Source: an uncultured Acidobacteriota bacterium (GTDB lineage Bacteria > Acidobacteriota > Terriglobia > UBA7540). From it: DNA of 64,000 nucleotides. The notes beneath the pieces were generated by a model. The model saw only the letters and a list, made by a program, of their open reading frames with translations. It searched no databases and was not told where the DNA came from. Of the stretch, positions 45,072 through 62,007 are shown piece after piece. Position numbers and translations under genes: made by a program. Where the stretch lies: assembly GCA_963804995.1 (NCBI GenBank), contig CAWDSK010000005.1:672001-736000 (forward strand). Reading direction: 5' to 3'. Positions within the stretch are counted from its first letter, which is position 1; each line of letters begins with the position of its first letter.

Positions 45072-45462
45072 CCCTGCCACGTTTTTTCCCATTCGCTGCC
45101 AATCAGACCACCAGGTACTTTCAGACCGGTAACTGCGGAAGTACTGTACAACCATCGTGTAGCTATGCTATATCGTGAAATGAATATCAGGGCACTTTGG
45201 GAAGTTTAGAGTCCGCAAAAAAGGTCTGTTGGAAAACTGAACATGCTGCCAGGTACACGCACTCTATTCCTGGGGGCATAGCGTCCGGCGAACCCTGAGT
45301 GGAGGAACTTGCCACGTGCGTTCACTGGGCAGCGGAGCCGTGCCGTCATTCTCTATTTCCGGCATTGGATTTCAAATTTTGGATTGAAACAGGAGGGGCT
45401 CAGTATTGATCGCGCCATTGGTTCCGCCGGAGCACTTGCGCTACGGCGCGGGCTCCACCTGA

Positions 45463-46365
45463 ATGCGGAAGATTGACCGCCTCGTGTGGGCGGAGGGACT
45501 GTGCTTCGAATCCTACGGCGTGAAGATCGGGATTCGTTCGAGCCAACCTGGCGTAATGGACCGGCTCCGACCGTTTCTGCCGCCACGCTGGGAAGCGATC
45601 GAACCGCCGCGCCGTCTCGATGCGCTCTACTCCTGGGTGGTAGGCGGTGAGCGCAAGCCCAAGGTGCGAACTTTCGACGTGATGTACGCGGGCGTGGGCC
45701 GGATCGCGCGGACGCTCAAGCCCGAGGAACTGTTCGAGACGTTTGAAGCGAACTTGCGGTTGACGGTCGCCCTGCTTTCGCGGCGCTTCGTGTTCATCCA
45801 TGCGGGTGCGGTCGGCTGGCGTGGGCGCGCCATCCTGATACCCGGGCGCAGCTTCACCGGCAAGTCGACCCTGGTCGAGGCGTTGGTGCGTGGGGGCGCT
45901 GAATACTTTTCGGACGAATATGCGATGTTGGATAGAAGCGGGCGTGTGCATCCCTTTCCCAAGCCGATTTCGGTCCGGATGCCGGTAACGCTCCGGCAGG
46001 AACCTCGCACCCTGGAAGAGGTCGGCGGCCGGGCTGCCGAATGCGCCATGAAGGTCGGCGCCATACTCGTCACCCGTCACCGTAAGGGTGCACGGTCGCG
46101 CTTTCGCAGGGCCTCACCCGCCCAAGGTGCCCTTGATCTTGTTGCGAACGCGGTGGCGGCACGCTGGGCTCCGGCGCGCGTGCTGCGTGCCACCTGCAAG
46201 GCGAGCGCAGACGCTATGGTGCTCCGCGGCCCGCGCGGCGAAGCGGAAGAAGCAGTGGAACGGTTGTTCGCGATTCTGGACTGGCGAGAAGCAGTACACA
46301 TCAAATCCCCCTCAGGATGTGTTTATGACCTCACAGAAAAATATGCCTGGGCGGCCCAAGGCTAG
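45463..46365 (+). CDS. HPr-kinase-related P-loop kinase (RiPP-associated type)
   Basis: FIHAGAV, GRSFTGKST, FSDE, PFPKP. Confidence 0.8.
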   Translation: MRKIDRLVWAEGLCFESYGVKIGIRSSQPGVMDRLRPFLPPRWEAIEPPRRLDALYSWVVGGERKPKVRTFDVMYAGVGRIARTLKPEELFETFEANLRLTVALLSRRFVFIHAGAVGWRGRAILIPGRSFTGKSTLVEALVRGGAEYFSDEYAMLDRSGRVHPFPKPISVRMPVTLRQEPRTLEEVGGRAAECAMKVGAILVTRHRKGARSRFRRASPAQGALDLVANAVAARWAPARVLRATCKASADAMVLRGPRGEAEEAVERLFAILDWREAVHIKSPSGCVYDLTEKYAWAAQG

Positions 46366-46858
46366 GACCAAGGGCCTGATCGTCGAAGAAGCTGGGAGTG
46401 AGCTGTTGGTTTATGATCGTAACAATGATCACGTCCATTCTCTGAACGGTCCTGCCGCCCGCATCTGGAGGCTCTGCACCGGCAGACGCACGGTGGAACA
46501 GATTGCCTCGGAGCTCGATATCCCTCTCGACCCCGCCGAGCGGAAGCTGGTGGTCCGCGACGCCATTACAAAATTCGAACGTCTGGGTTTGGTTGATGCC
46601 GCCGAGGGCGCGCCTGCCAATCCGTCGCGTCGGATGTGGGCTCGACGAATCAGCATTGGCGTGGCGGCGGGGGTGGCCCTGCCGCTAGTGACTTCCATCA
46701 TTGCGCCCACCTCTGCGTACGCGGCTAGCAAGCTAGGGACTGGCGCCACATGTTCTACGAGCACGCAATGCGCGTCGGGGTGCTGCTGCTCGAACAACAG
46801 TACTGGTCATCACTTCCAATGTGAGACGTCAGCGGTCTGCGGTGGTTCCTGTGAATAG
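46325..46858 (+). CDS. PqqD/RRE domain fused to a Tat-like signal segment and a Cys-rich tail (candidate self-contained precursor)
   Basis: ELLVYD..HSLNGPAARIWRLCTGRRTVEQIA (RRE); SRR..GVAAGVALPLVTSIIAPTSAYAAS; tail with 8 Cys. Confidence 0.8.
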   Translation: MTSQKNMPGRPKARTKGLIVEEAGSELLVYDRNNDHVHSLNGPAARIWRLCTGRRTVEQIASELDIPLDPAERKLVVRDAITKFERLGLVDAAEGAPANPSRRMWARRISIGVAAGVALPLVTSIIAPTSAYAASKLGTGATCSTSTQCASGCCCSNNSTGHHFQCETSAVCGGSCE

Positions 46859-47007: not shown

Positions 47008-48189
47008 TTATCCGTCTTGATCCGCGTTGATCTGCGGCCCGAACTGATTTTCGCTTGACCCTCGCCGCCTAGTCAGTTTTTCCCAGCCCGCTTGCAGCGA
47101 CCACCGCATCACGCTCCAAGCGATCCGCAACGGCCGCAGCGGGTAATAGAGGAAGAAGAGGAAACGCGGCAGGTGGATGAATCCCCAGTCCGCCAGCGTA
47201 GGCACAAACAGGCGGATAGCGGCAAAGCGCAGCCTTTCGGAAAGCGTCGGGAGCAATCGCGCCGAGAAGGCGATTTCGCTCGGTACCTGGAGAGACGCGA
47301 ACCCCTCGAGCGTCCGCGGGATTCGAGGCGCAAAGCCCGGGGGAGCGGGCGTGCCAAGTTGAGCGCTACAGGCGCCCAAGCTCAACTCGACGGCGTCGAC
47401 CCATCCCAAAGCCTGGGCCTTCTGCTTGACGATTTCCCAGTCGATTCCCCCTCGCGAGCAGAGCGCGTCCAAGTCCACTTGCCACTTCAGTTCGATCCAG
47501 CCGTGCCGGGCGGCGTGTACAGCCAGGTAAAGGAATTCCCACTCGGGGCTGAGCGCTAAGGTGGGACATCCGAAGAAGTTTACGGGGCGAGCCTCTCGCC
47601 AGACCTCACCGATCAGTTTCTCTTCGAGTCGTCCTCCCCAGACGAGGCCCCAGTGCAGTTCCAGCATAGCCTGACTTTCCTTGCCCATCAGGGTCCAGTC
47701 CTTGCCGTAGCGGAGCGTGAGGTCTTTGAAGAGGGGTGGACTCGAGTCGGGCCGGTATCCCGAAGCCCTCACGATCTCAAGGGCCTCGCGAGCGCGCTCC
47801 GGCTGAACCAGGATATCGAGGTCGCCCGTGAGGCGGAGAGAGACGTCGCCATAGAGCTCCTCGGCCAACGCGACGCCCTTGAGCGGGATTGCCGAAATTC
47901 CAGCCTTGCCCAGCAAGCGCAGCAGTCGGGCCAGCTCCTGGGCCAGCCGCAGGCTGCGGTTTCGATTGGCGTGCGAATCCCTCTGGAGCTTCAGGCGAAT
48001 CGGGTCAGGGACGCCCGGGAAACCCAAGAGATGGTGAGTGACCAGAGGCGACACCCGGTGAGCCTGCACGCGCTCGAGAAACTGGCCCCACCCGAGCGGC
48101 CCCGCCAGGATGTCGCGGGCGCGCCGCTCATCTTCCGGTGAGGGCCGCACCCGCGCCAACAGCAGGCACAACTGATCTTCCCGCGTCAT
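47008..48189 (-). CDS. Nucleotidyltransferase family protein (NTP_transf_5-like)
   Basis: PLKGVALA..LYGD..R..GDLDILV, LELHW, YLAVHAARHGW..LKWQVDL. Confidence 0.85.
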   Translation of the reverse strand: MTREDQLCLLLARVRPSPEDERRARDILAGPLGWGQFLERVQAHRVSPLVTHHLLGFPGVPDPIRLKLQRDSHANRNRSLRLAQELARLLRLLGKAGISAIPLKGVALAEELYGDVSLRLTGDLDILVQPERAREALEIVRASGYRPDSSPPLFKDLTLRYGKDWTLMGKESQAMLELHWGLVWGGRLEEKLIGEVWREARPVNFFGCPTLALSPEWEFLYLAVHAARHGWIELKWQVDLDALCSRGGIDWEIVKQKAQALGWVDAVELSLGACSAQLGTPAPPGFAPRIPRTLEGFASLQVPSEIAFSARLLPTLSERLRFAAIRLFVPTLADWGFIHLPRFLFFLYYPLRPLRIAWSVMRWSLQAGWEKLTRRRGSSENQFGPQINADQDG

Positions 48190-48207
48190 TCTGCCTCAGC
48201 AGTCGCT

Positions 48208-48320
48208 AGTAAGGGCACGCCATCCCGATCAAAACCATCGGGACAGGTGGCGTGCCCCTAAATCCCAGCCTTCTCCCAGGGGAGAAGGTGGCCGACGTAG
48301 GAGGACGGATGAGGGGTTAC
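48208..48320. repeat. Cluster of REP-like palindromes
   Basis: gtaagggcacgcc..atcccgat..atcgggac..ggcgtgccccta, followed by ccttctccc-a-ggggagaagg..gatgagggg. Confidence 0.6.
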
Positions 48321-48545
48321 TTACACGCGCGGGGCGTCGGAACAATTTTCAACTTATAAATTCAAAATCCCTAAGCCCGCCTCTACGTCAAATTGATCCA
48401 CCTAGTCACCCGCGAATAATAACGGATATTGAGCACCACCGTTCCGCGGCGCAACGGTTTATTATTGTCCTCCATAATGCGTGAGAATGAACCCGCAATT
48501 CTCACGAAATCTGGAAGGTCGATAAAAAAATCGCAGGGCCGACCT

Positions 48546-48672
48546 CTAGCAGGCTGATGAAAAACGATGTAGCGGCGGGTTTACCCCGCCATCCCTGTTG
48601 AAATCGTTGGAGATATGGCGGGGTAAACCCGCCGCTACGTCGCACTGCGAGGGTTTTTCAGCAGCCCGCTAG
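48546..48672. mobile_element. MITE-like element 1 with terminal inverted repeats and an internal 24-bp perfect hairpin
   Basis: ctagcaggctgatgaaaaac ... gtttttcagcagcccgctag (18/20); arms 48569..48592 and 48615..48638 are perfect reverse complements. Confidence 0.75.
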
Positions 48673-48879
48673 TGTGGTGTCCCGAGTTAGAGTTGACAAG
48701 GGGTAGAACCCCCTCACCCGTCTGGCATCGGCTGATGAGAACGCCTCGGCCAGCCACCCTCTCCCCCAAAGGGGCGAGGGCAAGAGAATTAACTCTCCCC
48801 TCGCCCCTTTGGGGGAGAGGGGCTGGGGGGTGAGGGGGTCCGACAGCCTTGTCAAATATTAACCGGGACACCACACTAG
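48669..48879. mobile_element. MITE-like element 2 enclosing REP repeats
   Basis: ctagtgtggtgtcccgagttagagttgacaagg ... ccttgtcaaatattaaccgggacaccacactag; shares a CTAG with element 1. Confidence 0.75.
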
Positions 48880-49063
48880 AGCTTGCGCTTGACAAACTCC
48901 CCCTAAGCGCTACAAGCTGCGATCAACATGTCAGAGGGCGTTCGGGCGAAGGCCGTGGGTACTCGATTGTGGAAGCGGGCATTTTGTCCCGTGGAGCGAT
49001 AAGAGGGTTCGCTCGTACTGCTGCAACAATGGAGTTTTTGACGCTTTTGGGGTATGTAAATGT

Positions 49064-49964
49064 GTGGTAATCCGCAGAATCCAAGCTGAGACTTGTCAAA
49101 TTGGATATGATCCCGAGGCTAAACTGAAGGAAAAGGCGCCGCTACTCGTACGGGCTTTCATTTTGCAGGACCGCCTGATGTCCGTGATGGTGCGCGCTTC
49201 CGCCATTATCAGAGATGAGATGCTCTGGGCCTGGACGTTGCCGGAAAGCCGTGAGCGGGCCAACCGAGCGATTTTCGGCCACGCGAGAACCTACTACCCC
49301 GGAGGCTCCACATTCGAAAGGGGCCTCTTCGACTGGGAGCGGGCCGCCATAACCTCTCCCCCTTTTCCACCTTCCGGCCGCATTCTTCTGGGTGGGGCGG
49401 GTGCCGGCCGCGAGCTGGCTGGACTCTGCAAGATGGGATACAAGGTTCTGGCCTTTGAGCCCTCAGCCGCGCTAGCCGAGGCGGCAGTCGCAGTGGCTGC
49501 TCCCTACCCGGAGAGCAAAGTCATCTGCGCCTCCTACCGGGATTCTTGTCCTGGCCGTGGAGAAGGGATCAGGCCCGCTTGTACCCCATGTTTGCCACGG
49601 GGAGTTCGACGGAGTCATTCTGGGCTGGACCAGCATTTGCTACGTGTGGAGACCTGAACGCGAGGCCCTGCTGAAGGCTCTGCGCACCATCGCCCCCCGC
49701 GCCCCGGTCCTGCTCAGCTACTGGTTGACTAGCGATCAATCGGAAGGCAGGCTCGGCAAGGTTCGGGGCTGGATCCGTCGCCTGCTACGCATTACAGGCG
49801 CCCGGACTTTGGCCGAACCCGGCGACGCGTTCTTCCCTTGGACGGGTTTTCTCCAGAGGTTGACGCCGGAGGAACTTCAATCGCTGGCGGATCGGACCGG
49901 TTATCAACCAGCTTACATGAGGAGTCAGCCTGAGCCCCACGCGATCTTTATCCCCTGCCCGTAA
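49064..49964 (+). CDS. Class I SAM methyltransferase-like protein; frameshift near 49540
   Basis: GLFDWE, RILLGGAGAGRE, AFEPS, then FDGVILGW in ORF 49557..49964. Confidence 0.7.
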
Positions 49965-50022
49965 CCCCGAGATGCGTCATGACAGATTGTGGACTTCATC
50001 TTGCTTGGCGTATTTCTGGCTA

Positions 50023-50202
50023 GTGGCACGGGCAACCTGCCCCGATGCATCGGGGTCTTGCCCGTGAGGAGACATGGCCAGGATGGCCATGCCACAGGAC
50101 GTGGCACGGGCAACCTGCCCCGATGCATCGGGGTTCTGCCCGTAAGGAGACATGGCCAGGATGGCCATGCCACAGGACGTGGCACGGGCATCTTGCCCGT
50201 GA
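50023..50202. repeat. Tandem 78-bp REP/BIME-like repeat (about 2.3 copies)
   Basis: Units start at 50023, 50101 and 50179: gtggcacgggca..ccccgatgcatcgggg..tgcccgt..catggccaggatggccatgccac. Confidence 0.9.
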
Positions 50203-50278
50203 CGGGGCGCCGGGGCGCCCGCAAGAAGCCTGGCGGTGCAAACTTCGGCCGTTTGAAACATTAAAATTGGAATCTTGG

Positions 50279-50308
50279 TTGACACCGCTCAGGGGAAGGG
50301 CTTAGCCT
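50279..50308 (+). promoter_or_regulatory. Candidate sigma70 promoter of the rSAM operon
   Basis: TTGACA-N18-TAGCCT, about 170 bp upstream of 50478, preceded by an AT-rich tract. Confidence 0.4.
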
Positions 50309-50477
50309 GCTGATAGCTTTTTCGTTTGAAATAAGGATTTCGGTGGCGCCGGAGGTCATGTTACCGTAGGTGGGGCCCGAGTCGGCTGTCCACGGCATAG
50401 TGACAGAGTACTATTTGGAGCTTGGCACGAGGATGCGGAACCTGTCCGCAGTCGAGTTGGGAATAGGGGATTTCTGA

Positions 50478-51407
50478 ATGGAAGTGCAGGACAAACATCG
50501 GCGGTATTTCCGCATTGCCGGCATTACGGTATGTGTAGAAAGCGACCTGGATTTTGACACCGTCAAGTTCAAGCCGGAATTCGCAGCCTTCGCGGTGGAG
50601 GGACCTGGCGATGACAACGTGACGCTGCGCCACGATTTCGACCTGGCCGACATGAAAGACGAAGACTTGGGAACGGAGGTGTACCGCAAAGCGCCGTGGT
50701 CTATCTCCCGCAAAGGCAATACGTGGCACTATCGCAGTATCTGGTCGCCCGAAAATGAACCCGGGCTGCACCACGTTGCGGTTTTTGATGCCCACTACAC
50801 GCACGCCACGATTCGCAGTCCAGCGCGCTGCAAAGGATTGCTTCGCCAAGTGGGTTGGCACTCGCTCTCGCTCTTCCCGACCGATCAGATTTGGCTTGCA
50901 CCCTTGCTCGCGGATCGCAGCGCGGTCTTGCTCCACTCGGCGGGGGTGATACTGAACGGACAGGGTTTGGTCTTTGCCGGTCATTCGGATGCGGGCAAGT
51001 CCACGATGGTGACTATGCTGAAGAGCGCGGCTGGGGCAGCAAATGGCCACTCGCCTTTGAAGGTGGAAATCCTCTGCGACGACCGCAACGTGGTGCGGCG
51101 CTGGAGGGAGGGTTGGCGCGTGCATGGGACTTGGAGCCACGGCGATGTGACGGAAGTGTCAGCGGCGTCCGCGCCCTTGGCGGCAATTCTATTCCTGCAA
51201 CAGGACACGCGCAATGAAGTCGTCCCCATGACTGATCGCAAGGAAATCTGGAAGCGTTTGCTCTCCACGCTCATCAAGCCCATGGTAACCGCTGAGTGGT
51301 GGCAAAAGGAGTTGGACGTACTGGAGCAGATCGTGAGAGATGTGCCGTGCTTCACGATCCACTTTGATAAGAGCGGGGCAATCGCGGAGAACTTGTTGCG
51401 CCTATGA
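50478..51407 (+). CDS. HPr-kinase-related P-loop protein (reminiscent of SynChlorMet cassette ScmC)
   Basis: LLHSAGV, GHSDAGKST, ILCDDRNVVRR, HGTWSHG. Confidence 0.75.
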   Translation: MEVQDKHRRYFRIAGITVCVESDLDFDTVKFKPEFAAFAVEGPGDDNVTLRHDFDLADMKDEDLGTEVYRKAPWSISRKGNTWHYRSIWSPENEPGLHHVAVFDAHYTHATIRSPARCKGLLRQVGWHSLSLFPTDQIWLAPLLADRSAVLLHSAGVILNGQGLVFAGHSDAGKSTMVTMLKSAAGAANGHSPLKVEILCDDRNVVRRWREGWRVHGTWSHGDVTEVSAASAPLAAILFLQQDTRNEVVPMTDRKEIWKRLLSTLIKPMVTAEWWQKELDVLEQIVRDVPCFTIHFDKSGAIAENLLRL

Positions 51408-52567
51408 GCCAATTCGTCCGGCGGGTTAACAAGCTGGAGAAACCTGTTGCCTCGTGCCTCGAGCAGCTCGACATTGAGCTGACCGAGCGGTGCAACAACG
51501 ATTGCATGCACTGTTGCATCAATCAGCCTGCGAACGACGAGGACGCGCGGCGGCGCGAGATGACCACGGCCCAGGTCAAGGACATCCTGGAACAAGCTGT
51601 CAGCCTCGGGTGTCTGCAGGTGCGCTATACGGGCGGCGAACCGCTCCTGCGGCCCGAATTCGAAGAGCTTTACCTGTTCGCGCGGCGGCTCGGAATGAAG
51701 GTGGTGCTGTACACGAACGCACGCCTCATCACGCCCCACCTTTCCGATTTGTTGGCGCGCATCCCTCCTTTGGAGCCAATTGAAATTACGGTGTATGGGA
51801 TGCACCAGGAAACCTATGAGGCGGTGACGCGTGCGCCCGGGTCTTTCCGACAATTCTGGCGGGGCACAAACCTGTTGTTGGAACACAAGGTGCCGTTCAT
51901 CGTCAAGGGCGCCCTTTTGCCTCCAAACAAGCATGAGATCGACGAATTCGAAGCTTGGGCGGCGACGATCCCTTGGATGAGCGAACCGCCCAGCCATGGG
52001 AAGCACTTTGACTTGCGCAACCGCCGGGACGATGTAAACAAGAACCGACTGATTGAGTCGCTGCGCGTGTCTCCCGAAGAGGGACTCGAGGTGTCTTTGC
52101 GCAACAGCGCGAAGCGTCACCCCTGGACGCCGGAGCTGGCGTCGAGATTCCTGCGCCCGCCTGGCGCCCGCCTCTTCGATTGCGGTGCCTGCGCCGGACG
52201 CCACGCCTGTATCGACGCATACGGACGCGCCCAGCCCTGCATGGGTGTCCGCGCACCGGAGTTGACGCGCAATGTTGTGGGGGCTTCAGAAGGCGACCAT
52301 TGTTCCCTGCAAGATGCGCTGGATCAATTCACCCGCTTCGGCGATCTCCGCGCGACAAATCCTGACTATCTCCAGCGCTGTGCGGCGTGTTTTATCAAAG
52401 GCATATGCAGACAGTGCCCAGCCACGTCGTGGGCGGAGAATGGCGGGCTTGATACGCCGGTGGAATACGAGTGTGAAATCGCTCACGCGTGGGCGCGCCA
52501 CTTGGGCTGGCTGGGCGAGAATGAGCACGGATGGGAAGTGATGGATGGGTGGCAGAGGGTGAAGTAG
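51404..52567 (+). CDS. Radical SAM/SPASM peptide maturase 1
   Basis: CNNDCMHC, TGGEP; SPASM cysteines CGAC..QPC..CAAC..ICRQCP..EC. Confidence 0.93.
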   Translation: MSQFVRRVNKLEKPVASCLEQLDIELTERCNNDCMHCCINQPANDEDARRREMTTAQVKDILEQAVSLGCLQVRYTGGEPLLRPEFEELYLFARRLGMKVVLYTNARLITPHLSDLLARIPPLEPIEITVYGMHQETYEAVTRAPGSFRQFWRGTNLLLEHKVPFIVKGALLPPNKHEIDEFEAWAATIPWMSEPPSHGKHFDLRNRRDDVNKNRLIESLRVSPEEGLEVSLRNSAKRHPWTPELASRFLRPPGARLFDCGACAGRHACIDAYGRAQPCMGVRAPELTRNVVGASEGDHCSLQDALDQFTRFGDLRATNPDYLQRCAACFIKGICRQCPATSWAENGGLDTPVEYECEIAHAWARHLGWLGENEHGWEVMDGWQRVK

Positions 52568-52688
52568 TATAATTATGGGTTGTTGACCAATAACGACCGC
52601 CGGTTAAGAATCCTTTGCCCGGCGATCTTGAGAAAGTGACCTGCTGGTCAGGATGCAGGCTGCACTTAGGGAAGAAAAAGGAGACAAA

Positions 52689-52865
52689 ATGAGCATGGAG
52701 AAGAAGCAATGGGAGAGACCGGAACTCATCGTTCTGGCCCGAAGCAACCCAGAAGAAGTAGTGTTGACAAACTGTAAGGCGAATCCATATCCCACCGCCG
52801 GCAGTGGCAGATGTAAAACCAGTGGTAATGCTTGCACGTCGAACAGTGCTGTCGGCACGAGTTAG
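52689..52865 (+). CDS. RiPP precursor peptide, 58 aa
   Basis: SD AAAAGGAG; MSMEKKQWERPELIVLARSNPEEVVLTNCKANPYPTAGSGRCKTSGNACTSNSAVGTS; WxxPxL leader motif; lies between the rSAM and RRE genes. Confidence 0.85.
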   Translation: MSMEKKQWERPELIVLARSNPEEVVLTNCKANPYPTAGSGRCKTSGNACTSNSAVGTS

Positions 52866-53008: not shown

Positions 53009-53347
53009 ATGACGCAACTTGGCCTTAACGCAGTTTGTGTCCCATCCCAGGATGTGGTGGCGCGCGTGATTGAAGGCGATCTGGTTATTGTGCCGCTGGT
53101 GGCCGGCATCGGTGCTGCCGACGACGAACTGTTCACCCTCAACGATACCGGGAAGGCGATCTGGGACCGGCTCGATGGAAAAAAGACCCTGAAGGACGTG
53201 GCGGCGGAATTGGCCGCGGAGTACGAGGCGCCGATCGAGAGCATCGAGAGTGACGTCCTGGGCCTGACCACAGAGCTTTTCGAGCGGAAAATGCTCGTCA
53301 AAGTTACTCCGGAGACAGCCAGTGAGCTCCCAAACCCAACCCCGTGA
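53009..53347 (+). CDS. Stand-alone PqqD family RiPP recognition element
   Basis: DVVARVIEGDLVIVP..LFTLNDTGKAIWDRLDGKKTL..IESDVLGL. Confidence 0.92.
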   Translation: MTQLGLNAVCVPSQDVVARVIEGDLVIVPLVAGIGAADDELFTLNDTGKAIWDRLDGKKTLKDVAAELAAEYEAPIESIESDVLGLTTELFERKMLVKVTPETASELPNPTP

Positions 53348-53813
53348 GCTTCCGCTTTCCGGTCCGGACCTGAAGGGGCTTTTGAGCGCCGTGTTGGCCA
53401 AGGGAGCGGCCTTCCGCTTCCGGGCCAAAGGCGCCAGCATGGCGCCCTTCATCAGGGATGGAGATGTGGTTACGGTCTCACCAGTTCCTGGCACGAACCT
53501 TCGCCCTGGCGACGTGGCGGCATTCACAAATCCCCAGACGGACCGCCTGGTCATCCACCGGATTGTGGGAACCGCGGATGGCTCTTTCCTCATCAAGGGG
53601 GACTCCGTCCGCGAGGGGGATGTTCTCGTTCCGGCCTGTCAGGTCCATGGTCGCGTGACCCGAGTCGAGCGCAAGGGGCGGAACTTGCGCCTTGGCCTCG
53701 GCTCGGAGCGTATTCTAATCGCTTTCCTCAGCCGAACTGGCCTGTTGCCCATACTGCTGGCGCCGGTTCGGGGGATCTACCGATTGATTGTTCCCAGGAA
53801 CCCCTCGGCATGA
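53322..53813 (+). CDS. S24/S26 family peptidase (signal-peptidase-I-like)
   Basis: GASMAPFIRDGD, GDVAAF, VIHRIV, IKGD. Confidence 0.85.
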   Translation: MSSQTQPRELPLSGPDLKGLLSAVLAKGAAFRFRAKGASMAPFIRDGDVVTVSPVPGTNLRPGDVAAFTNPQTDRLVIHRIVGTADGSFLIKGDSVREGDVLVPACQVHGRVTRVERKGRNLRLGLGSERILIAFLSRTGLLPILLAPVRGIYRLIVPRNPSA

Positions 53814-54961
53814 GCGAACCGAAGACGGCATCCATCCGCATCCAGGACTTCCCCCTCTGGGACAAACTCAAGGACCGGCGGGTGCCGCTCTCATTCGATC
53901 TGGAATTGACGGCGCGCTGCAATCTCGACTGCCGTCACTGTTACATCAATCTTCCCGCCGGTGACCGTGAGGTGCAGAAGCGGGAGCTATCCCTGGAGGA
54001 GATTGGCGCCATTGCCGACCAGGCGGTTTCTCTCGGCGCCATGTGGTGCTTGATAACCGGCGGCGAGCCCCTGCTGCGCAAGGACTTCACGGATATATAT
54101 CTGCTGCTGAAGCGGAAGGGGTTGCTGGTCTCAGTATTCACAAACGCCTGCCTGGTGACCGAAGAACACGTCAAACTCTTCCGCAAATACCCTCCGCGCG
54201 ACATCGAGGTCACCGTGTACGGCGCTAGTTCGGAGACGTACGAGCGGGTGACGAGGAGGCCGGGCTCCTTTGACGCCTTCCGGCGTGGCCTGAACCGGCT
54301 GCTGGATAGCGGCGTCAAGGTGCGGCTGAAGGCCATGGCCCTGCGGTCGAACTTGGTGGAATTGCCTGAGATTACCCATTTCTGCCGCGAGCGGACCAAG
54401 GACTTCTTCCGCTTCGACCCGTTGCTCCACCTGCGATTCGATGGCGACCCGCGGCGCAACGAAGAGATCCGTGCAGAACGCTTGACGCCGGGCGAGATCG
54501 TCGCTATCGAGCAGGCTGATGAGGAGCGGGCAGAGGCGTTGCGCAAGGGTTGCGACGAGCTGATCCAGCCGGAACTGAATCATGTGGGGTGCGACCACCT
54601 GTTCCATTGCGGCGCCGGAAACGGCAGCTTCACGGTGAGCTACGATGGGCATTTCCGCCTGTGTTCCGACCTGTGCCAGCCGGATTGCACTTATGACCTT
54701 CGCCAGGGCAGCCTGGCTGACGCCTGGCAGAACTTCGTCCCCAAGGTGCGCGACATGCGGTCAGCCAAGAAGGAGTTCCTCGAAACCTGCCGAGCGTGCC
54801 CAATCGTGAACCTCTGCATGTGGTGCCCAGCCCGCGCCCACCTGGAAAGCGGCAAGATGGACAGCTTCGTACCATACTTCTGTGAGGTGGCGCACGCCCG
54901 GGCCGCAGCCATCGGGGAGAGCGCCGGCCGTCCCTTGAAGCAAACTCCTGTAGTCCGATGA
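53810..54961 (+). CDS. Radical SAM/SPASM peptide maturase 2
   Basis: CNLDCRHC, TGGEP; SPASM HCGAG..RLC..CRAC..LCMWCP..FC. Confidence 0.93.
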   Translation: MSEPKTASIRIQDFPLWDKLKDRRVPLSFDLELTARCNLDCRHCYINLPAGDREVQKRELSLEEIGAIADQAVSLGAMWCLITGGEPLLRKDFTDIYLLLKRKGLLVSVFTNACLVTEEHVKLFRKYPPRDIEVTVYGASSETYERVTRRPGSFDAFRRGLNRLLDSGVKVRLKAMALRSNLVELPEITHFCRERTKDFFRFDPLLHLRFDGDPRRNEEIRAERLTPGEIVAIEQADEERAEALRKGCDELIQPELNHVGCDHLFHCGAGNGSFTVSYDGHFRLCSDLCQPDCTYDLRQGSLADAWQNFVPKVRDMRSAKKEFLETCRACPIVNLCMWCPARAHLESGKMDSFVPYFCEVAHARAAAIGESAGRPLKQTPVVR

Positions 54962-55519
54962 CTACTTCCCATCTACACCTTCGACGAACACAATCAGGCG
55001 TTCTTCTTCATCAGCAACCGCGACACTGACCCACTCGCGCTGATGGCCTATCCCGATTTCACGCGCTTCAACTACACGACGCTGCCTTTGGAGAAGGTCC
55101 CCGGGAATCGCCAGGTGATTCTGGACATCGACTTCGACTTCTTCGCTTGCCGGGATTCGATTCAGAATCACATTGGCTATCAGTTGGAGGTGACCCAAGA
55201 CCAGTTTGCCGCCCGGGAGGCGCTCTTGCGCGATCCGACCCTCCGGTTCAGCGGGATGGCGTTCGATTTCACGGAAAAGGATGGCAGGCGCTTTGTTCAG
55301 GTATCACCCAAGAGGGGAAAGGACGTTTCCCATCTGCCCTCAAAACCGGAGATCGTCGCTGAGATCGGGACTCTGGTGAGCACGCTGGCGGCGAAGAAGG
55401 TCAGGCCGGGGGTCGTCACCCTATGCAGGTCCTGTGTAAGCGGGTATTGCCCCAGAGAATTCGCTGAGATGATTGAAGCCGAATTGAAACCACAACTGAA
55501 GCGTCTTCTTGAGGCGTAG
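54958..55519 (+). pseudogene. UPF0489-like protein, frameshifted after the ATG and apparently shortened
   Basis: ATGA overlap, then PIYTFDEHNQAFFF in another frame, VILDIDFDFF, VVTLCRS..SGYCP. Confidence 0.55.
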
Positions 55520-55817: not shown

Positions 55818-57641
55818 TTGAAGCAAACCCTCCAAATCCTGATACCCCGGCTGCGCAAGGCGCTGGCGCAACTGCCTTACCTTCCGCAGACCCTGTCACT
55901 GGTGTGGACTGCCGCGCGCGGCTGGACGGTCACGTGGGGCGTGCTGCTGCTGCTCCAGGGATTGCTGCCGGTGGCCACCGTCTACGTGACGCGCTGGCTG
56001 GTGAATAGCCTGGTGGCAGCGATTCGCGCCGGAGGCTCCTGGGAAGTTCTGCGGCCGACGCTGCTCATCGTTGCCCTCATGGCGGCCATCCAACTGGCCT
56101 TGCAGATTCTGCGCAGCGCCACGGTCTACGTCCGCACGGCCCAGTCGGAACTGGTCGAGGACCATATCCGCGCGCTGATCCATCGCAAGTCCGCTGCGGC
56201 GGATCTGGCCTTCTACGATTCGGCGGAATTCTACGACCACCTGCATCGGGCACGGAGTGACGCTTCCTATCGCCCCATAGCGCTGGTCGAAAGCCTGGGC
56301 AGCCTGGTGCAGAATGCGATCACGCTGGTGGCCATGGGCGCGGTGCTGATCCCCTTCGGGGCCTGGCTGCCCGGCGCGCTTCTGATCGGCACGGCGCCGG
56401 CGCTGTACGTGGTGGTGCGCTACGCGCTGCTCCAGAACCAGTGGCGGCGCAGGGTCACTCCGGTCGAACGCCGCGCCTGGTATTTCGATTGGCTGCTCAC
56501 CACCGGCGACACGGCCTCGGAGGTCAGGCTGTTCGGTCTGGGCGAGCATTTTCAATCCGCTTACCAAATCCTGCGCCAGCGCTTGCGTGGAGAGCGTCTG
56601 GATCTGGCGCGGAAACAGGTGCTGGCGGAGTTCGGTGCGGGCAGCTTGGGGCTAACAGTCACCGGCGGCGTCATGGCCTGGATGGTGTGGAGGGCGGTGC
56701 GTGGCCTCGCAACCTTGGGAGACTTGGCGATGTTCTACCAGGCCTTCCAACAGGGCCTGGGGCTGATGCGCGGTCTGCTGGAGAATCTTGGCCAGCTTTA
56801 TGGCAACCTGCTGTTCTTGGGAAACCTGTACGAGTTCCTGGGATTGGAACCGCGCGTCGTCAGTCCGCTCCGGCCTTCGCCCGCTCCCCCGGCGGTCGCA
56901 AGCAGTATCAGGCTCGAGCGCGTGCGATTCCGCTATCCCGGAAATGCGCGGCCGGTGCTGGAAGATTTTGATCTGGAAATTCCTGCCGGGCAAATCGTTG
57001 CGGTGGTGGGGCCGAATGGGGCAGGGAAGAGCACGCTGATTAAGCTGCTCTGCCGCTTCTACGACCCGGAGGCTGGCCGCGTGGCGCTTGACGGCGTCGA
57101 CCTTTGCGAATTCAAGATCGAGGAACTGCGCAGTCGCATCACTGTCCTCTTTCAGCAGCCGGTGCATTACAACGATACGGTGCGGGAAAACATCGCCTAT
57201 GGGGATTTGCACGCCCCTGCCGATTCTTTGGAAACAGCCGCGCAGGCCGCGGGCGCGGAGGAGATCATCGCGCGCCTGCCACAGGGTTATGACAGCACAC
57301 TGGGCCGGTGGTTCGCCGACGGCACGGAACTCAGCCTGGGTGAGTGGCAGCGCATCGCTTTGGCCCGCGCTTTCCTGCGGCGTGCGCCCATCCTGATCCT
57401 CGATGAGCCTACGAGCGCCATGGATCCTTGGGCGGAAGCGGATTGGCTGGCGCGGTTCCGGACGCTGGCAACCGGCCGCACGGTTCTGATGATCACGCAT
57501 CGCTTCTCCACGGCAATGTTTGCCGATGTGATTCATGTGATGAGCGAAGGCCGCATCGTGGAATCTGGAACGCATGAGCAGTTGCTCGAAGCAGGCGGCC
57601 GCTACGCACAGGGCTGGGCTACCCTGCGGGAGAGAGCATGA
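55818..57641 (+). CDS. ABC exporter, fused permease/ATP-binding, without a C39 peptidase domain
   Basis: TMD, then GPNGAGKST, LSLGEWQRIALARA, ILDEPTS, ITHR. Confidence 0.93.
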   Translation: MKQTLQILIPRLRKALAQLPYLPQTLSLVWTAARGWTVTWGVLLLLQGLLPVATVYVTRWLVNSLVAAIRAGGSWEVLRPTLLIVALMAAIQLALQILRSATVYVRTAQSELVEDHIRALIHRKSAAADLAFYDSAEFYDHLHRARSDASYRPIALVESLGSLVQNAITLVAMGAVLIPFGAWLPGALLIGTAPALYVVVRYALLQNQWRRRVTPVERRAWYFDWLLTTGDTASEVRLFGLGEHFQSAYQILRQRLRGERLDLARKQVLAEFGAGSLGLTVTGGVMAWMVWRAVRGLATLGDLAMFYQAFQQGLGLMRGLLENLGQLYGNLLFLGNLYEFLGLEPRVVSPLRPSPAPPAVASSIRLERVRFRYPGNARPVLEDFDLEIPAGQIVAVVGPNGAGKSTLIKLLCRFYDPEAGRVALDGVDLCEFKIEELRSRITVLFQQPVHYNDTVRENIAYGDLHAPADSLETAAQAAGAEEIIARLPQGYDSTLGRWFADGTELSLGEWQRIALARAFLRRAPILILDEPTSAMDPWAEADWLARFRTLATGRTVLMITHRFSTAMFADVIHVMSEGRIVESGTHEQLLEAGGRYAQGWATLRERA

Positions 57642-58148: not shown

Positions 58149-58484
58149 TTAGGGTTTGGACTCGCTCGTATTCGTCAATGCAGAATTGCGGGGTGAGTCA
58201 AGGGAGTCGAAGAGGACTGAAGCCAAATGATCTGGAATCCTCTTGTAGCCCTCTTTTCTTACCCATCGGTCCAACCTTGCAATAAAGGCATACCTCCGCA
58301 ACTCTCTTTCTTCTACACCTAAAGCCCGTGCCAATGCTCTACAGATTTGTCGGGTTGGGGGATCTGTTTTCTCCTTCTCCAGTTGGCTTATGTAGGCACT
58401 AGTAAGACGGCATTTTTGGGCTAGCTCGCTTTGAGTTAATTCCGCGTGCAGTCTGAGGTCCTTTAGGTGGGGGCCGAATCTCAT
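58149..58484 (-). CDS. XRE family HTH repressor
   Basis: MRFGPHLKDLRLHAELTQSELAQKCRLTSAYISQLEKEKTDPP..LARALGV. Confidence 0.9.
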   Translation of the reverse strand: MRFGPHLKDLRLHAELTQSELAQKCRLTSAYISQLEKEKTDPPTRQICRALARALGVEERELRRYAFIARLDRWVRKEGYKRIPDHLASVLFDSLDSPRNSALTNTSESKP

Positions 58485-58519
58485 TGCACGCCGATAGTAC
58501 CACAATTGCAAAAAAGCTC

Positions 58520-58548
58520 TTGACAAGATGGGGGCGGCAATCTAGAAT
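58520..58548 (+). promoter_or_regulatory. Near-consensus sigma70 promoter
   Basis: TTGACA (58520-58525)-N17-TAGAAT (58543-58548). Confidence 0.8.
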
Positions 58549-58572
58549 AAAGAAAGTAACTTACTTTCTTTA
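58548..58572. promoter_or_regulatory. Perfect palindrome; candidate repressor operator over the transcription start
   Basis: TAAAGAAAGTAA-C-TTACTTTCTTTA, 12-bp arms. Confidence 0.7.
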
Positions 58573-59142
58573 GTGAGGCGGGTACAGATGTTGAGTGCCG
58601 AAAGGTTGAAACAAGCCGACAAGCTGCCGGACAGCAGTGGTGCCACAAATCCGTGCTATGTCACCCACGGAGATCTACTGGGCCTTGCCACAGAAAACCA
58701 CTGTCAAGGGATAGTGACTGAGCCAGTGCTTCCGCTGTGCCGGCCGGAAAAGAACTTCTGGGTTTTTAAAGCCACGGTTTACAAATCCTCCAAATGCCGC
58801 GGCTTTGTTGGTTACGGCGATGCTCATCCTGGCAATGTCTCTCCTTTGATTTTCAACAATGCCGAGATGCGCATGGCGGAAACGCGCGCCGTCAATCGTG
58901 CCTTGCGCAAGGCCTACGGCATTGGTCTCTGCTCGCTCGAGGAGCTTCCGCCTTGGCGTATGAGCACCGAGCAAGTCTCCGCGTTGCGCCGGACGCTGCA
59001 AATGCGCCCGGCGTTCCAGAAAGGAGCCCAGCATGCGCACCAAAATCCAAGGCCTCAGCCAGGCAACGGAACGAAGCCCTCTGGTCGAAGGCCTGTATCG
59101 AGCCCGAGTGGTTCACTTCGAGCTCCCCGGGCACGCCGCTAA
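58573..59142 (+). CDS. Hypothetical protein, possible Rad52/Sak-like single-strand annealing protein
   Basis: YVTH..LL, FKATVY, GYGDA, MAETRAVNRALRKAYGIG. Confidence 0.55.
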   Translation: MRRVQMLSAERLKQADKLPDSSGATNPCYVTHGDLLGLATENHCQGIVTEPVLPLCRPEKNFWVFKATVYKSSKCRGFVGYGDAHPGNVSPLIFNNAEMRMAETRAVNRALRKAYGIGLCSLEELPPWRMSTEQVSALRRTLQMRPAFQKGAQHAHQNPRPQPGNGTKPSGRRPVSSPSGSLRAPRARR

Positions 59143-59470
59143 GCCTTGTCGGAGAGTGACGTTCTTGATTCTTGACCCTCCCCAGTATGCCGGCCGCTAC
59201 GTGCGCACGCGGCTCTACTGCCATGAGCGCGCCCTTTGGAAGCTCCGTTGGTTCTTGAATGACTTCAACTACGACGCCGACCTCCTGGCCGCCGACGAGT
59301 TAGACGACCGCCGCGTGGTGGGTCTGGAAGGGGTCATTCGCGTTGCCTATTGGGGAAACGACGGTCACCGCCGTTTGGATGTCGAGGGCTTCGCTCCCAG
59401 CGAGCGTTGGGCCGATCTTTCCGTTCATCAACCATCCTGTGAAAGCCTCGCGGAGGCTGCTCAGGCTTAG
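59033..59470 (+). CDS. DUF669-like phage single-stranded DNA-binding protein
   Basis: EGLYRARVV..VTFLIL..YAGR..ALWKLRWFL; SD AAAGGAG before the ATG. Confidence 0.55.
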   Translation: MRTKIQGLSQATERSPLVEGLYRARVVHFELPGHAAKPCRRVTFLILDPPQYAGRYVRTRLYCHERALWKLRWFLNDFNYDADLLAADELDDRRVVGLEGVIRVAYWGNDGHRRLDVEGFAPSERWADLSVHQPSCESLAEAAQA

Positions 59471-59505
59471 ACTTCGGGATAGAACTATCTTGAAAGGAGG
59501 GGATC

Positions 59506-60294
59506 ATGGATCATTACAGTTACACGCAACTTTCCACCTATCTGCAGTGCCCGCTGAAGTACAAGTATCACTACCTGGAAGGCTGGCAGGAAACGGAAGA
59601 CAAAGCCAGTCTCGTCTTCGGCCGAGTGTTTCAAAGCGCCGTCGAAGCCCAATTCCTGCTGCCTGACTCCGTGCGGTTCTTCACCGAGCGCTGGACGGGA
59701 GTCAAGGAAATGCCGCTTGAGTTTACCAACGGTGATAGTTGGGAGAAGATGCTCGAGCAGGGCCAGTCGCTCCTGGAACAGTTCCGCCAGGACAAGCGGG
59801 TCCTAATTGAGGACGGCCGAACGGATTTTCAGGTCAAGTTCCGCCGTCCCCTGCCGCTCAGCCAGAAGCATTTCCTGGCCTATGTGGATGCCATCGGGTA
59901 TGTCGATGGGCGCCACAGCCTGATTGAGTGGAAGACCACTACGCAATCCTACCCGGAGAACCTGGGCCGAGTTTTAGAACTCGATCCCCAGTTGGTCTGC
60001 TACTCTTGGGCGGCGGAGAAGCAGGAGGTGTGTCTCGTAAACTTCGTACGGAAGAAGTTGCCGGAGATCCAGTACCTGCGGGCGCGCATCCGCAAGCGCC
60101 AGTGGAAGGCCTTTGAACAGACCCTGGACCTGCTGGCGAGCGAGATGGAAGCCGGGCACTTCTACCCCCGTTCGGGGATTCGTTATCCCAACAACCAGTG
60201 TTTGAACTGTGCCTATTTGGGGCTGTGCCTGAGGAAGAAGGCCCTGGTGGAAGAGAAGCTGGTCAAGGTGGAGGAGTTGGCGGTCCATGGATAA
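59506..60294 (+). CDS. PD-(D/E)XK nuclease (RecB/AddB-like, 4-Cys Fe-S staple)
   Basis: SYTQLSTYLQCPLKY, YVD..LIEWKT, QLVCY, CLNC..LC; SD GAAAGGAGG. Confidence 0.88.
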   Translation: MDHYSYTQLSTYLQCPLKYKYHYLEGWQETEDKASLVFGRVFQSAVEAQFLLPDSVRFFTERWTGVKEMPLEFTNGDSWEKMLEQGQSLLEQFRQDKRVLIEDGRTDFQVKFRRPLPLSQKHFLAYVDAIGYVDGRHSLIEWKTTTQSYPENLGRVLELDPQLVCYSWAAEKQEVCLVNFVRKKLPEIQYLRARIRKRQWKAFEQTLDLLASEMEAGHFYPRSGIRYPNNQCLNCAYLGLCLRKKALVEEKLVKVEELAVHG

Positions 60295-60985
60295 GGCGCG
60301 GGCACAACAGGTTCTGGCCCGGATCGATGAGATCCTGCGTTGGGAGCAGCGGACGGACCAGCAAAAGGACCAGAAGTTTGCCGAGCTGGGAAAGCACCTG
60401 TGCGTGGTGAGGAAGCACGGGTACTGGCGGCTGCGGCACAAAAGCTTTGAGGCTTACCTGGAGGAGAAGTTTCCGGACTCGCGGCGGAAGGCGTATTACC
60501 TCATGTCGATTCATGACCACCTGCCGCAAATCCCGGCGCCGGAGATCGAGGAACTAGGCTGGTCAAAGGCGTTGGAACTGGCAAAAGTGGCCAGAAGTGA
60601 AGGTCGACGATTTGACAGTGCAACCTGGTTGCACAGGGCGCAGGAGTCGACGAAGCAGGAGTTGAAGGAAGCGGTTCACAAGTACTTCACGGGGGAAGAC
60701 TACGAGCCTTACGAGATGGTTTACTTCAAGCTGTTTGAGAGCCAGTTGCCGGTGGTGGAAAGGGCCCTGTACGTGGCCTCGCGGATGGTGGGGACGGAGC
60801 GGTCGCGGGGTTACTGCCTGGAACTGGTGTGCGCGGATTTTCTGGCAGGTAGGGGGGAGGAGTCGTCGCCGGACGAGATCTTGATGGTGATCCACCGCCT
60901 TGTGCATCTGCTGCCGCGCGAGTACCAGACACGGCTTGTCGGCCAGAATGGGGGCAGGGAATTGGAGACAGCCGGCAAATGCTGA
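60287..60985 (+). CDS. Hypothetical phage-like protein
   Basis: Translationally coupled on both sides; ELGKHL, SFEAYLEE, LGWSKALEL, LELVCADFL. Confidence 0.7.
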   Translation: MDKARAQQVLARIDEILRWEQRTDQQKDQKFAELGKHLCVVRKHGYWRLRHKSFEAYLEEKFPDSRRKAYYLMSIHDHLPQIPAPEIEELGWSKALELAKVARSEGRRFDSATWLHRAQESTKQELKEAVHKYFTGEDYEPYEMVYFKLFESQLPVVERALYVASRMVGTERSRGYCLELVCADFLAGRGEESSPDEILMVIHRLVHLLPREYQTRLVGQNGGRELETAGKC

Positions 60986-61989: not shown

Positions 61990-62007
61990 AGAGAAACAAA
62001 CACGCCC

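Follow-up and report, generated by a model that had tools for sequence, protein, structure and literature searches.

A RiPP precursor gene with a lasso-type leader motif in a conserved HprK-like kinase and radical SAM gene cassette of an uncultured Acidobacteriota bacterium

The precursor gene and its cassette

The window analysed here, a stretch of 64,000 nucleotides from an uncultured Acidobacteriota bacterium (assembly GCA_963804995.1, contig CAWDSK010000005.1, positions 672,001 to 736,000), carries on its forward strand a small open reading frame (ORF), 52689..52865, which is almost certainly a genuine precursor of a ribosomally synthesised and post-translationally modified peptide (RiPP). 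Direct reading of the window places the ATG at 52689 and the TAG stop at 52863-52865, giving a product of 58 amino acids, MSMEKKQWERPELIVLARSNPEEVVLTNCKANPYPTAGSGRCKTSGNACTSNSAVGTS, with the Shine-Dalgarno sequence AAAGGAG (52677..52683, forward strand) 5 nt before the ATG. The leader region, M1-N28 (52689..52772, forward strand), contains W8-E-R-P11-E-L13, a W8-x-x-P11-x-L13 motif, followed by R18 and P21-E-E-V-V-L26 (R18..P21-E-E-x-V-L26), while the core region, C29-S58 with the stop codon (52773..52865, forward strand), opens with C29-K30, holds C42, C49 and the C-terminal S58, has Ala at core position 3 and contains no Asp or Glu. The strong Shine-Dalgarno sequence and these landmark residues (W8, P11, L13, the three cysteines and S58) had been listed in a preliminary description of the locus; all were found as claimed, and the translation agrees.

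The ORF is part of a conserved cassette comprising an HprK/ScmC-like kinase, a radical S-adenosylmethionine (rSAM)/SPASM enzyme, the precursor, a PqqD protein, an S26 peptidase, a second rSAM/SPASM enzyme and an MsbA-like pump, all of them encoded on the forward strand in the window. The HprK/ScmC-like P-loop protein (50478..51407) matched ScmC (E 9.7e-08) and HprK_rel_B (E 6.4e-06), both NCBIfam models and both under cut-off, and its gene overlaps stop to start with that of rSAM/SPASM maturase 1 (rSAM1, 51404..52567; PF04055, E 2.7e-20; best NCBIfam model ScmF, E 4.9e-21, far under cut-off). The gene for a discrete PqqD-family RiPP recognition element (RRE) begins 144 nt downstream of the precursor (53009..53347; PF05402, E 3.4e-15; lasso PqqD models, E 4.5e-07 and 2.1e-05, under their cut-offs). 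It is followed by an S24/S26 signal-peptidase-I-like protein of the archaeal/ER (endoplasmic reticulum) type, the predicted leader peptidase (53322..53813), which scored above the gathering score of Peptidase_S24 (E 5.6e-08) and reached 44.6 bits with sigpep_I_arch (E 1.3e-11; cut-off 51.85). A second stop/start overlap joins this gene to rSAM/SPASM maturase 2 (rSAM2, 53810..54961; PF04055, E 8.8e-24; SPASM, E 5.1e-04). Further downstream lies an MsbA-like ABC permease/ATPase, the predicted exporter (55818..57641; MsbA, E 8.8e-83, under cut-off; ABC_tran, E 5.4e-33).

The same cassette recurs elsewhere. We examined 23 genome loci and 78 metagenome loci, the metagenome set being drawn from at least 157 relative-encoding stretches among 600 matched, of which the best 80 were kept. 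The recurrent gene order was (rSAM0), HprK-like, rSAM1, precursor(s), PqqD, S26, rSAM2 and then (NTP_transf_5, ABC), where rSAM0 is a third rSAM gene found directly upstream of the HprK-like gene in most relatives. Co-occurrence was scored in 24 distinct loci whose precursor lay at least 5 kb from both contig ends: an rSAM gene and an HprK-like gene each accompanied the precursor in 21, PqqD and S26 each in 19, and the less frequent partners were the ABC pump (10), NTP_transf_5 (6) and an arginase-like gene (2). The L056 locus was found without PqqD and S26. A more distant cassette, here termed type II (L051-L059), has the order PqqD, single rSAM, precursor, HprK-like, S26, and its leader reads YxxP rather than WxxP, with the ...RPEEAVLxxCK segment kept. 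Three Cys and a final Ser occur in each of the eight distinct type II cores, most of which end in Gly-Ser. The W/Y split between type I and type II leaders parallels the discrimination between paeninodin and linear polyphosphorylated peptides (LPP) described by Popov et al. (2026; PMC13381572).

In some type II cassettes the S26 domain lies within a very long ORF (L058, 11489-19999, more than 2,800 aa; L059, 7469-9985); the window contains no such protein. At another locus, L089 (7595-15039), one cassette is accompanied by an array of 11 precursor genes that share their leader and differ in their cores, an arrangement that looks like a natural combinatorial library. The precursor in the window has no second copy in its own genome (7.55 Mb in 9 contigs, 92% complete). 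Within the rSAM1-precursor spacer, at 52583-52611 and 78 nt before the precursor start, is a sigma-70-like site, TTGACC-17-AAGAAT; this plain consensus match could be a precursor-specific promoter. A terminator scan, whose total was below that of shuffled sequence, gave no terminator after the precursor.

The precursor family and its core pattern

The precursor family is very large and unnamed. A profile built from five members matched 1307 proteins at E<=1 among 1600 candidates from a word-indexed protein search, in records titled Acidobacteriota, Planctomycetota, Bacteriovoracaceae and Chloroflexi. All 120 relatives taken from the matches listed are without a Pfam domain and named 'hypothetical protein', no model for the peptide exists in NCBIfam or Pfam, and its 30 nearest ESM Atlas clusters are unnamed. 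Models for known precursors gave little: the Scm precursor models matched none of 7 precursors scanned, and the StsA sactipeptide model gave one type II precursor a score (E 0.0094, 15.9 bits, cut-off 42) that was too weak and was not used. Within the phylum of the window, 34 of 401 sampled genomes had profile matches at E<=1e-3, and a re-search with the hidden Markov model found a family-type precursor at 20 of the 20 places retrieved among those 34; the weakest matches in this sample, outside the 20, sit in long ORFs and may be false. Orthologues of the adjacent rSAM gene were found in three metagenome-assembled genome records (Acidobacteriota, Bacteriovoracaceae and Planctomycetota), with same-leader small ORFs at the equivalent position in those from Acidobacteriota and Bacteriovoracaceae. 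The occurrence of homologous small ORFs beside orthologous rSAM genes, together with the size of the family, led us to drop the reading of 52689..52865 as a chance ORF.

Conservation was counted over 121 sequences, the 120 relatives and the window precursor. The leader, with the consensus WxxPELIVLVRSxPEEAVLxxCK, is almost invariant, and the core is hypervariable. PEExxLxxC was present in 121 of 121 members, and with the recurrence of the cassette this bore out the expectation that the leader would be conserved near homologous rSAM genes. The W of WxxPxL was kept in 119, and the description of the peptide as a RiPP precursor with a lasso-type leader likewise held, [Y/W]xxPx[L/V/I/F/A] being the motif bound by discrete lasso RREs (PMC13381572). 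Lys directly follows the first Cys in 118 members, and the last residue is Ser in 109, Thr in 10 and another residue in 2, so that the terminal hydroxyl residue picked out in the preliminary description is conserved as Ser or Thr in 119 of 121. Its view of the cysteines fared less evenly: the first Cys and later Cys are conserved, but cores with three Cys, as in the window, are a minority (41/121), four being present in 75 and another number in 5. The argument that an odd number of cysteines speaks against simple disulfides thus fails for the family, most members of which have four.

Patterns within the core were analysed in 236 distinct cores ending in Ser or Thr; others were dropped, and 11 with other Cys counts stayed outside the profiles. 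Only four features were informative, namely Cys1, Lys2, the later Cys and the terminal residue, the remaining positions being near background. Lys2 was found in 128 of 128 cores in the type I set, and a terminal Ser or Thr in 125 of 128 type I and 8 of 8 type II cores. In 149 of 159 four-Cys cores, and in 48 of 66 with three Cys, the distance from the last Cys to the C-terminus is exactly 6 residues; a CxxC or CxxxC motif stands before the tail in 151 of the 159. In the window precursor the spacing from the last Cys to the C-terminus is 9, a rare value common to 2 of the 66 three-Cys cores. A close relative, P0018 (64% identity), has Cys spacing identical to that of the window precursor.

Predicted functions of the cassette proteins and kinship to known systems

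Binding of the leader by the adjacent PqqD protein is very probable. As the preliminary description had proposed, the leader-RRE complex was modelled, using a 16-row alignment for PqqD and a 17-row alignment for the precursor, with three controls; the interface scores (ipSAE) were 0.50, 0.49 and 0.50, against 0.00, 0.00 and 0.02 for the controls, which lends the complex weak support. Partner pLDDT did not fall below 51, and contacts agreed between the runs to at least 95%. Of 157 solved complexes 116 attained the pass mark for this score, as did 2 of 215 mismatched pairs; at scores of 0.60 or below it was attained by only 18 of the 157 and by both passing mismatches. The S26 peptidase keeps G37, S39, M40, P42, H79, R80, G93 and D94 invariant in 13 of 13 orthologues, and the layout G37-x-S39-M40-x-P42, H79-R80, G93-D94 is the Ser/His/Asp arrangement of archaeal-type signal peptidases. 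In the LPP pathway the corresponding enzyme, LppS, is an SpI-like, RRE-dependent leader peptidase with S29, H68 and D93, which requires LppB and cuts after T-1 with F-3 in a hydrophobic cleft (PMC13381572).

The radical SAM enzymes all have a CX3CX2C motif and a full set of SPASM cysteines. In rSAM1, C30-x3-C34-x2-C37 and seven C-terminal Cys were conserved over 31 orthologues; in rSAM2, C37-x3-C41-x2-C44 and the SPASM Cys over 29; and in rSAM0, CX3CX2C and seven C-terminal Cys over 20. The seven-Cys SPASM pattern, C-x18-C ... C-x2-C-x5-C-x2-C-x18-C, is common to the three groups. SkfB, StsB and AlbA were among the sequence matches of the rSAM proteins, the sactisynthase SkfB matching rSAM2 in the PDB sequences at E 9.5e-12; these matches are distant and not specific to thioether synthases. 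An rSAM0 orthologue was absent from the genome of the window, where the best matches to the rSAM0 of L006 (4004-5023 in that locus) were rSAM1 and rSAM2 (34% and 31% identity).

The distribution of rSAM0 relates these enzymes to the cysteines. It was scored in 23 distinct loci where a precursor was found and the contig also covers the 1.1 kb preceding the HprK-like gene. A core with at least four Cys was present in 16 of 16 loci bearing rSAM0, and only three-Cys cores were present in 6 of 7 loci without rSAM0 upstream (the window, L090, L102, L119, L122 and the HprK-only locus L042). In the seventh, L098, rSAM0 lies elsewhere on the contig, beside a four-Cys precursor. On maximum-likelihood trees built quickly for rSAM1 and for the HprK-like protein (22 rows, with L042 and L069 left out), the changes in rSAM0 and in the fourth Cys fall together, at 3 positions on both trees, at least 2 of which are forced by well-supported branches. 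This co-variation is suggestive, and is the best available evidence that the cysteines are the rSAM substrate. The preliminary description had linked the Cys thiols, in a ranthi- or sactipeptide-like way, to Asn, Thr or Ser carbons; the association of Cys with rSAM genes stood, while such acceptors proved not to be conserved. By analogy with other rSAM/SPASM systems, we consider thioether cross-links at the cysteines somewhat more probable than their absence. The lack of acceptor conservation would, as inference only, fit side-chain-independent C-alpha (sacti-type) links better than residue-specific ones.

The HprK/ScmC-like protein keeps H153, G168-x-S170-x-x-G173-K174-x-T176, D201, R207, G217, T218, H221 and G222 invariant in 18 of 18 orthologues, the residue after D201 being D or E. 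A phmmer search of the protein against PDB sequences gave no match at E<=1. A profile of the family found the HPr kinase/phosphorylase chains 1jb1 and 2qmh (E 6e-4, positions 132-193), and ABC transporters matched this profile at the P-loop only (151-175). The AlphaFold model (pLDDT 88.9, pTM 0.88) shows at its N-terminus an additional domain of some 130 residues, rich in beta structure, and Foldseek related it to phosphoenolpyruvate (PEP) carboxykinases (E 3.7e-07, TM 0.40 on query) and to HprK/P (1kkl_C, E 1.6e-05, TM 0.51 on target; also 2qmh, 1kkm and 1ko7). PEP carboxykinase and HprK/P represent one P-loop kinase fold class. The precomputed Pfam annotation PF27840.1 covers the window's HprK-like protein (P0121) and all 120 listed homologues; the ESM Atlas names this family ScmC, and no paper mentioning PF27840 was present in the literature searched.

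The idea that this protein phosphorylates the C-terminal Ser was partly sustained, in that the adjacent protein retains kinase motifs and fold and kinase catalysis is argued from the invariant His, P-loop and D-[D/E] motifs, the phosphorylation itself being drawn by analogy. We regard phosphorylation of Ser58 by this protein as an evenly balanced prospect. In line with the preliminary description, which named the paeninodin type, HprK-type kinases phosphorylate the C-terminal Ser in paeninodin and pseudomycoidin (PMC6993621). PsmK puts one to three phosphates on the C-terminal Ser of pseudomycoidin, its metal-site double mutant D158A/D159A is inactive, and the nucleotidyltransferase PsmN attaches a hexose to the phosphate (PMC6993621); the D158/D159 site of PsmK compares with D201-[D/E]202 in the window family. 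LppK phosphorylates Ser3 of the LPP core with up to four phosphates and did not phosphorylate the S3T variant (PMC13381572).

Two accessory genes flank or interrupt the cassette. An NTP_transf_5 'uncharacterised nucleotidyltransferase' (47008..48189, PF14907, E 6.1e-58) lies on the opposite strand 2.3 kb upstream, adjoining a second HprK/PqqD system; homologues with 24-31% identity stand beside rSAM2 or ABC genes in other loci (e.g. L062, L065, L089, L111, L119, L122 and L127), 6 of the 24 well-flanked loci having one. By analogy it is possibly a tailoring enzyme, the LppN/PsmN counterpart, of either the peptide cassette or the upstream HprK/PqqD system. Between rSAM2 and the pump lies a UPF0489/peptide-arginase-like gene (54962..55519, forward strand), which matched NF052474, the FlmR/OhkR family, at E 2e-21 over profile positions 135-286 of 287 only. 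Compared with the intact 302-aa orthologue of L006 (11006-11914) it keeps residues 7-21 and 133-296 and is missing about 111 residues, including the DAHDD stretch of the L006 protein, and it has no ATG, GTG or TTG before 55043. It is a decayed remnant and probably inactive here, so that conversion of the core residue Arg41 to ornithine is improbable in the window.

A close parallel for the cassette is the LPP pathway of Bacillota, with the genes lppA-K-B-S-D-N (Popov et al., Nat Commun 2026, PMC13381572). The S26 leader peptidase with its LPP parallel, the third rSAM of relatives and the ScmC (SynChlorMet) family had gone unmentioned in the preliminary description. A discrete RRE, an SpI-like peptidase, an HprK-like kinase and an MsbA-like pump are all present in the window as in LPP, the core is hypervariable in both, and both lie in polysaccharide biosynthesis loci; capsular polysaccharide loci often house LPP clusters next to lasso clusters of the paeninodin type, which have WxxP leaders (PMC13381572). 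In contrast to LPP, which has neither, the window family has 1-3 rSAM genes and conserved Cys; its leader, WxxPELIVLVRSxPEEAVLxxCK, differs from the LPP leader YxxPxVLxHQxIxFETxxS; its conserved Ser is C-terminal and its core position 3 is not conserved, whereas LPP is phosphorylated on core Ser3; and it occurs in other phyla, whereas LPP is described as restricted to Bacillota (PMC13381572). The presence of 2-3 rSAM/SPASM genes argues for modification beyond an LPP-like polyphosphorylation of an otherwise linear product.

Sactipeptides and ranthipeptides (SkfB, AlbA, CteB, PapB) are thioether RiPPs made by rSAM/SPASM enzymes from a Cys-bearing core with an RRE-dependent leader. The window cassette shares with them an rSAM enzyme with a full seven-Cys SPASM domain, a core with Cys and a predicted dependence of the leader on an RRE. 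Its RRE stands alone, however, unfused to the rSAM enzyme; the number of paralogous rSAMs in cassettes of the family rises to three; a kinase, an S26 peptidase and possibly an NTP transferase come in addition; and the cross-link is here a prediction. With lasso peptides of the paeninodin/pseudomycoidin type the cassette has in common the WxxP leader, a discrete PqqD RRE, an ABC pump, an HprK-type kinase (acting there on the C-terminal Ser) and, if the NTP_transf_5 gene belongs to it, an NTP-transferase (adding there a hexose to the phosphate) (PMC6993621). In contrast to that type, no lasso cyclase, B2 protease or ring-forming Asp/Glu is present here, S26 is predicted to serve for leader removal, and rSAM enzymes and conserved Cys are added. 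In PMC4289311, HPr kinase comes up solely in connection with lasso clusters.

A fourth relation is to the functionally uncharacterised SynChlorMet (Scm) cassette (NCBIfam TIGR04249-04251), which shares an HprK-like ScmC, a PqqD-like ScmD and two rSAM/SPASM enzymes. The Scm models scored far under their cut-offs in the window (ScmC 31.7/125, ScmD 27.4/100, ScmE 58.1 and 71.1/400, ScmF 75.5 and 82.9/400); the broader Pfam ScmC family (PF27840), unlike these NCBIfam models, includes the HprK-like protein of the window. No paper on the SynChlorMet cassette was present in the literature searched, and neither the combination of rSAM, HprK-like kinase and RRE/S26 nor the leader motif was found in that literature, which left subscription journals mostly uncovered. 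We class the window cassette as an LPP/paeninodin-type toolkit fused with rSAM/SPASM peptide cross-linking.

Proposed maturation, its alternatives and the genomic surroundings

The reading we favour, by a modest degree, is one in which the precursor is held by its leader on the RRE, acquires rSAM thioethers on its three Cys and phosphate on Ser58, is cleaved by the S26 peptidase and is exported by the ABC pump. The W-x-x-P-x-L element of the leader would be bound by the adjacent PqqD protein, as its motif, adjacency and the modelled complex suggest, and the RRE would present the precursor to the peptidase in the manner of LppB and LppS. On the bound precursor rSAM1 and rSAM2 would link Cys sulfur to backbone or side-chain carbons, a step argued from the Cys conservation, the SPASM domains and the rSAM0/fourth-Cys co-variation. 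The HprK/ScmC-like kinase would phosphorylate Ser58, perhaps repeatedly, by analogy with PadeK and PsmK, and the NTP_transf_5 protein might add a sugar to the phosphate, as PsmN does. By analogy with LppS, the S26 peptidase would then remove the leader, with candidate cuts at L26-T-N / C29 (Leu26 at -3, cf. F-3 in LPP) and T27-N-C29 / K30 (small residues at -3 and -1), and the ABC pump would export the product. The calculated monoisotopic mass of the core before modification is 2889.2804 Da with Cys29 as first residue and 2786.2712 Da with Lys30.

Several observations weigh against this proposal. Two precursors, at L047 (~10001) and L049 (~10162), are orphans among unrelated genes with no cassette gene within 10 kb; the presence of a complete cassette, L044, on the contig of the L049 precursor points to maturation in trans. 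At L042 there is an HprK-like gene but no rSAM gene within 10 kb, and L057 keeps the terminal Ser beside an rSAM gene only, with no HprK-like gene within 10 kb. The pass of the complex prediction is weak and may reflect likeness to RRE-leader complexes already solved. Homology did not assign a reaction to the rSAM enzymes, which are only distant relatives of any characterised enzyme, whose top matches mix heme, cofactor and peptide enzymes, and whose best NCBIfam models were the uncharacterised ScmF/ScmE and heme/cofactor enzymes, all far under cut-offs. The co-variation of rSAM0 with the fourth Cys comprises only 2-3 independent events, all agreeing, a number with which the sign test cannot give less than p 0.5, and L098 was coded as having rSAM0 only after the data had been seen. 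The number of rSAM genes does not match that of the cysteines one to one, with one rSAM for three Cys in type II and two for three in the window, and no acceptor residue (Asn, Thr or Ser) is conserved at any fixed offset from any Cys in the 236-core set. The LPP kinase acts on Ser3 of its core, as against a terminal Ser here that is replaced by Thr in about one member in ten. Finally, the window copy is without rSAM0, has the decayed arginase-like gene and shows the unusual tail length, so that it may be in decay or depart from what is usual in the family.

The cysteines and the terminal residue each admit another explanation. The product could be a linear or disulfide-bonded phosphopeptide in which the rSAM enzymes carry out epimerisation, C-C or C-N cross-linking (e.g. 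at Lys2) or Cys oxidation, the Cys forming disulfide pairs or binding metal after export. The prevalence of an even Cys number, the CxxC or CxxxC before the tail, the absence of a conserved acceptor, the near-invariance of Lys2 and the mismatch between rSAM and Cys numbers, with no reaction assigned by homology, are all in keeping with it. It would leave an unpaired thiol in the common three-Cys cores, however, including all those of type II; the third rSAM comes and goes together with the fourth Cys; and, Lys2 and the terminal Ser/Thr aside, Cys is the sole common handle in the core for 1-3 enzymes. We consider this explanation unlikely, and extend much the same judgement to the proposal that the HprK/ScmC-like protein is not the Ser58 kinase. 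That protein might instead serve the rSAM enzymes as a scaffold or chaperone that depends on ATP, or have some other residue or molecule as its phosphorylation target, with the terminal Ser/Thr kept as the acceptor of a last-Cys cross-link (C-x5-S) or as an exporter signal. The fixed six-residue tail suits a ring or structural constraint equally well, Thr-ended members sit poorly with the rejection of S3T by LppK (PMC13381572), the kinship to HprK/P is remote (no phmmer match, a profile E of 6e-4, Foldseek TM 0.3-0.5) and the extra N-terminal domain is consistent with another role. Set against these are the invariance of the His, P-loop and D-[D/E] motifs, the fact that the set of kinase, NTP transferase, RRE and pump goes with Ser phosphorylation in every characterised case (PMC13381572; PMC6993621), and the terminal Ser being the modified residue in paeninodin and pseudomycoidin (PMC6993621).

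That the ORF encodes a lasso peptide precursor would explain the WxxPxL leader, the Thr at -2 of Cys29, the discrete PqqD and the HprK-like and NTP_transf_5 genes, and two relatives resemble the paeninodin precursor model NF033524 weakly, in the leader only (P0002, 12.6 bits, and P0077, 13.4 bits; E 0.049 and 0.086; positions 1-12; cut-off 27 bits); the window precursor itself does not match this model. The genome, 92% complete, has no transglutaminase-type B2 protease (PF13471), however, and of its two PF00733 genes the sole nearby one, 37530-39452, lies in an exopolysaccharide (EPS) locus, passes the asparagine synthase model (457.5/267.1) and fails that for lasso cyclases (216.1/525). Asp or Glu is absent from the window core and present at positions 7-9 in only 15 of 121 family cores. 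With the tests for cyclase, B2 protease and ring Asp/Glu all failed, the lasso system was rejected, its probability being close to nil. A further alternative, that the window copy is a decaying, non-productive cluster within a real family, is quite improbable. It accords with the missing rSAM0 orthologue, the arginase-like remnant, the single precursor copy with its atypical tail and a 2.3-kb gap with a 78-bp tandem repeat at the rSAM0 position. Yet the seven core genes are all intact ORFs with catalytic motifs, the precursor has a strong Shine-Dalgarno sequence, cassettes with three-Cys cores and no rSAM0 recur in L090, L102, L119, L122 and the HprK-only L042, and P0018 has the same Cys spacing.

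If the maturation proposed above is correct, thousands of environmental genomes (Acidobacteriota, Chloroflexota, Planctomycetota and others) would encode an undescribed type of RiPP that merges two separately known logics, rSAM cross-linking of Cys and the lasso/LPP-style toolkit of a [Y/W]xxP leader, discrete RRE, HprK kinase, NTP transferase and signal-peptidase-like leader protease. LPP-type machinery, described in 2026 as restricted to Bacillota, would extend across phyla, and the orphan ScmC/SynChlorMet database families would gain a function. The family would also offer a natural series of 1, 2 or 3 rSAMs against three or four Cys for assigning enzymes to sites, and the link to EPS loci, common to LPP and paeninodin, would make the purpose of the phosphorylated peptides testable. 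It is doubtful, though conceivable, that this amounts to a new RiPP class of hypervariable libraries, with up to 11 precursor genes per locus, stapled by modular paralogous rSAMs, each added rSAM serving an added Cys, and bearing a C-terminal phospho-Ser cap as a sugar handle; joining of peptide to exopolysaccharide in such a class would explain the position of the cassette at the ends of EPS loci.

In the window the peptide cassette, in a placement that it shares with the LPP and paeninodin clusters of Bacilli, lies at the end of a 22-kb EPS biosynthesis locus (21762-43755), which contains about six GT4 glycosyltransferases, two NodU-like carbamoyltransferases, an FkbM methyltransferase, WcaI- and WecA-like genes and the glutamine-hydrolysing asparagine synthase mentioned above (37530-39452). 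Directly upstream of the cassette, at 43893-46858, is a second HprK-associated peptide system with a geranylgeranyl-reductase-like flavoprotein, an HprK_rel_A-like protein (E 1.4e-14) and a PqqD domain joined in one protein with a membrane segment and a tail rich in Cys; adjacent RRE systems in one window raise the question of cross-talk that was addressed by Popov et al. (PMC13381572). The 2.3-kb gap where relatives bear rSAM0 spans 48200-50470, and its 78-bp tandem repeat (2.3 copies) lies at 50023-50198. Two overlapping ORFs in different frames within the gap, 49064-49657 and 49557-49964, give only a faint methyltransferase hint (E 0.12) and may be one frameshifted gene. After the ABC pump, the region 58149-64000 encodes a helix-turn-helix regulator, a PD-(D/E)XK nuclease, an HNH endonuclease, a Uma2 endonuclease and a Phd/ParE-like pair; it resembles a mobile element and marks the right border of the cluster.

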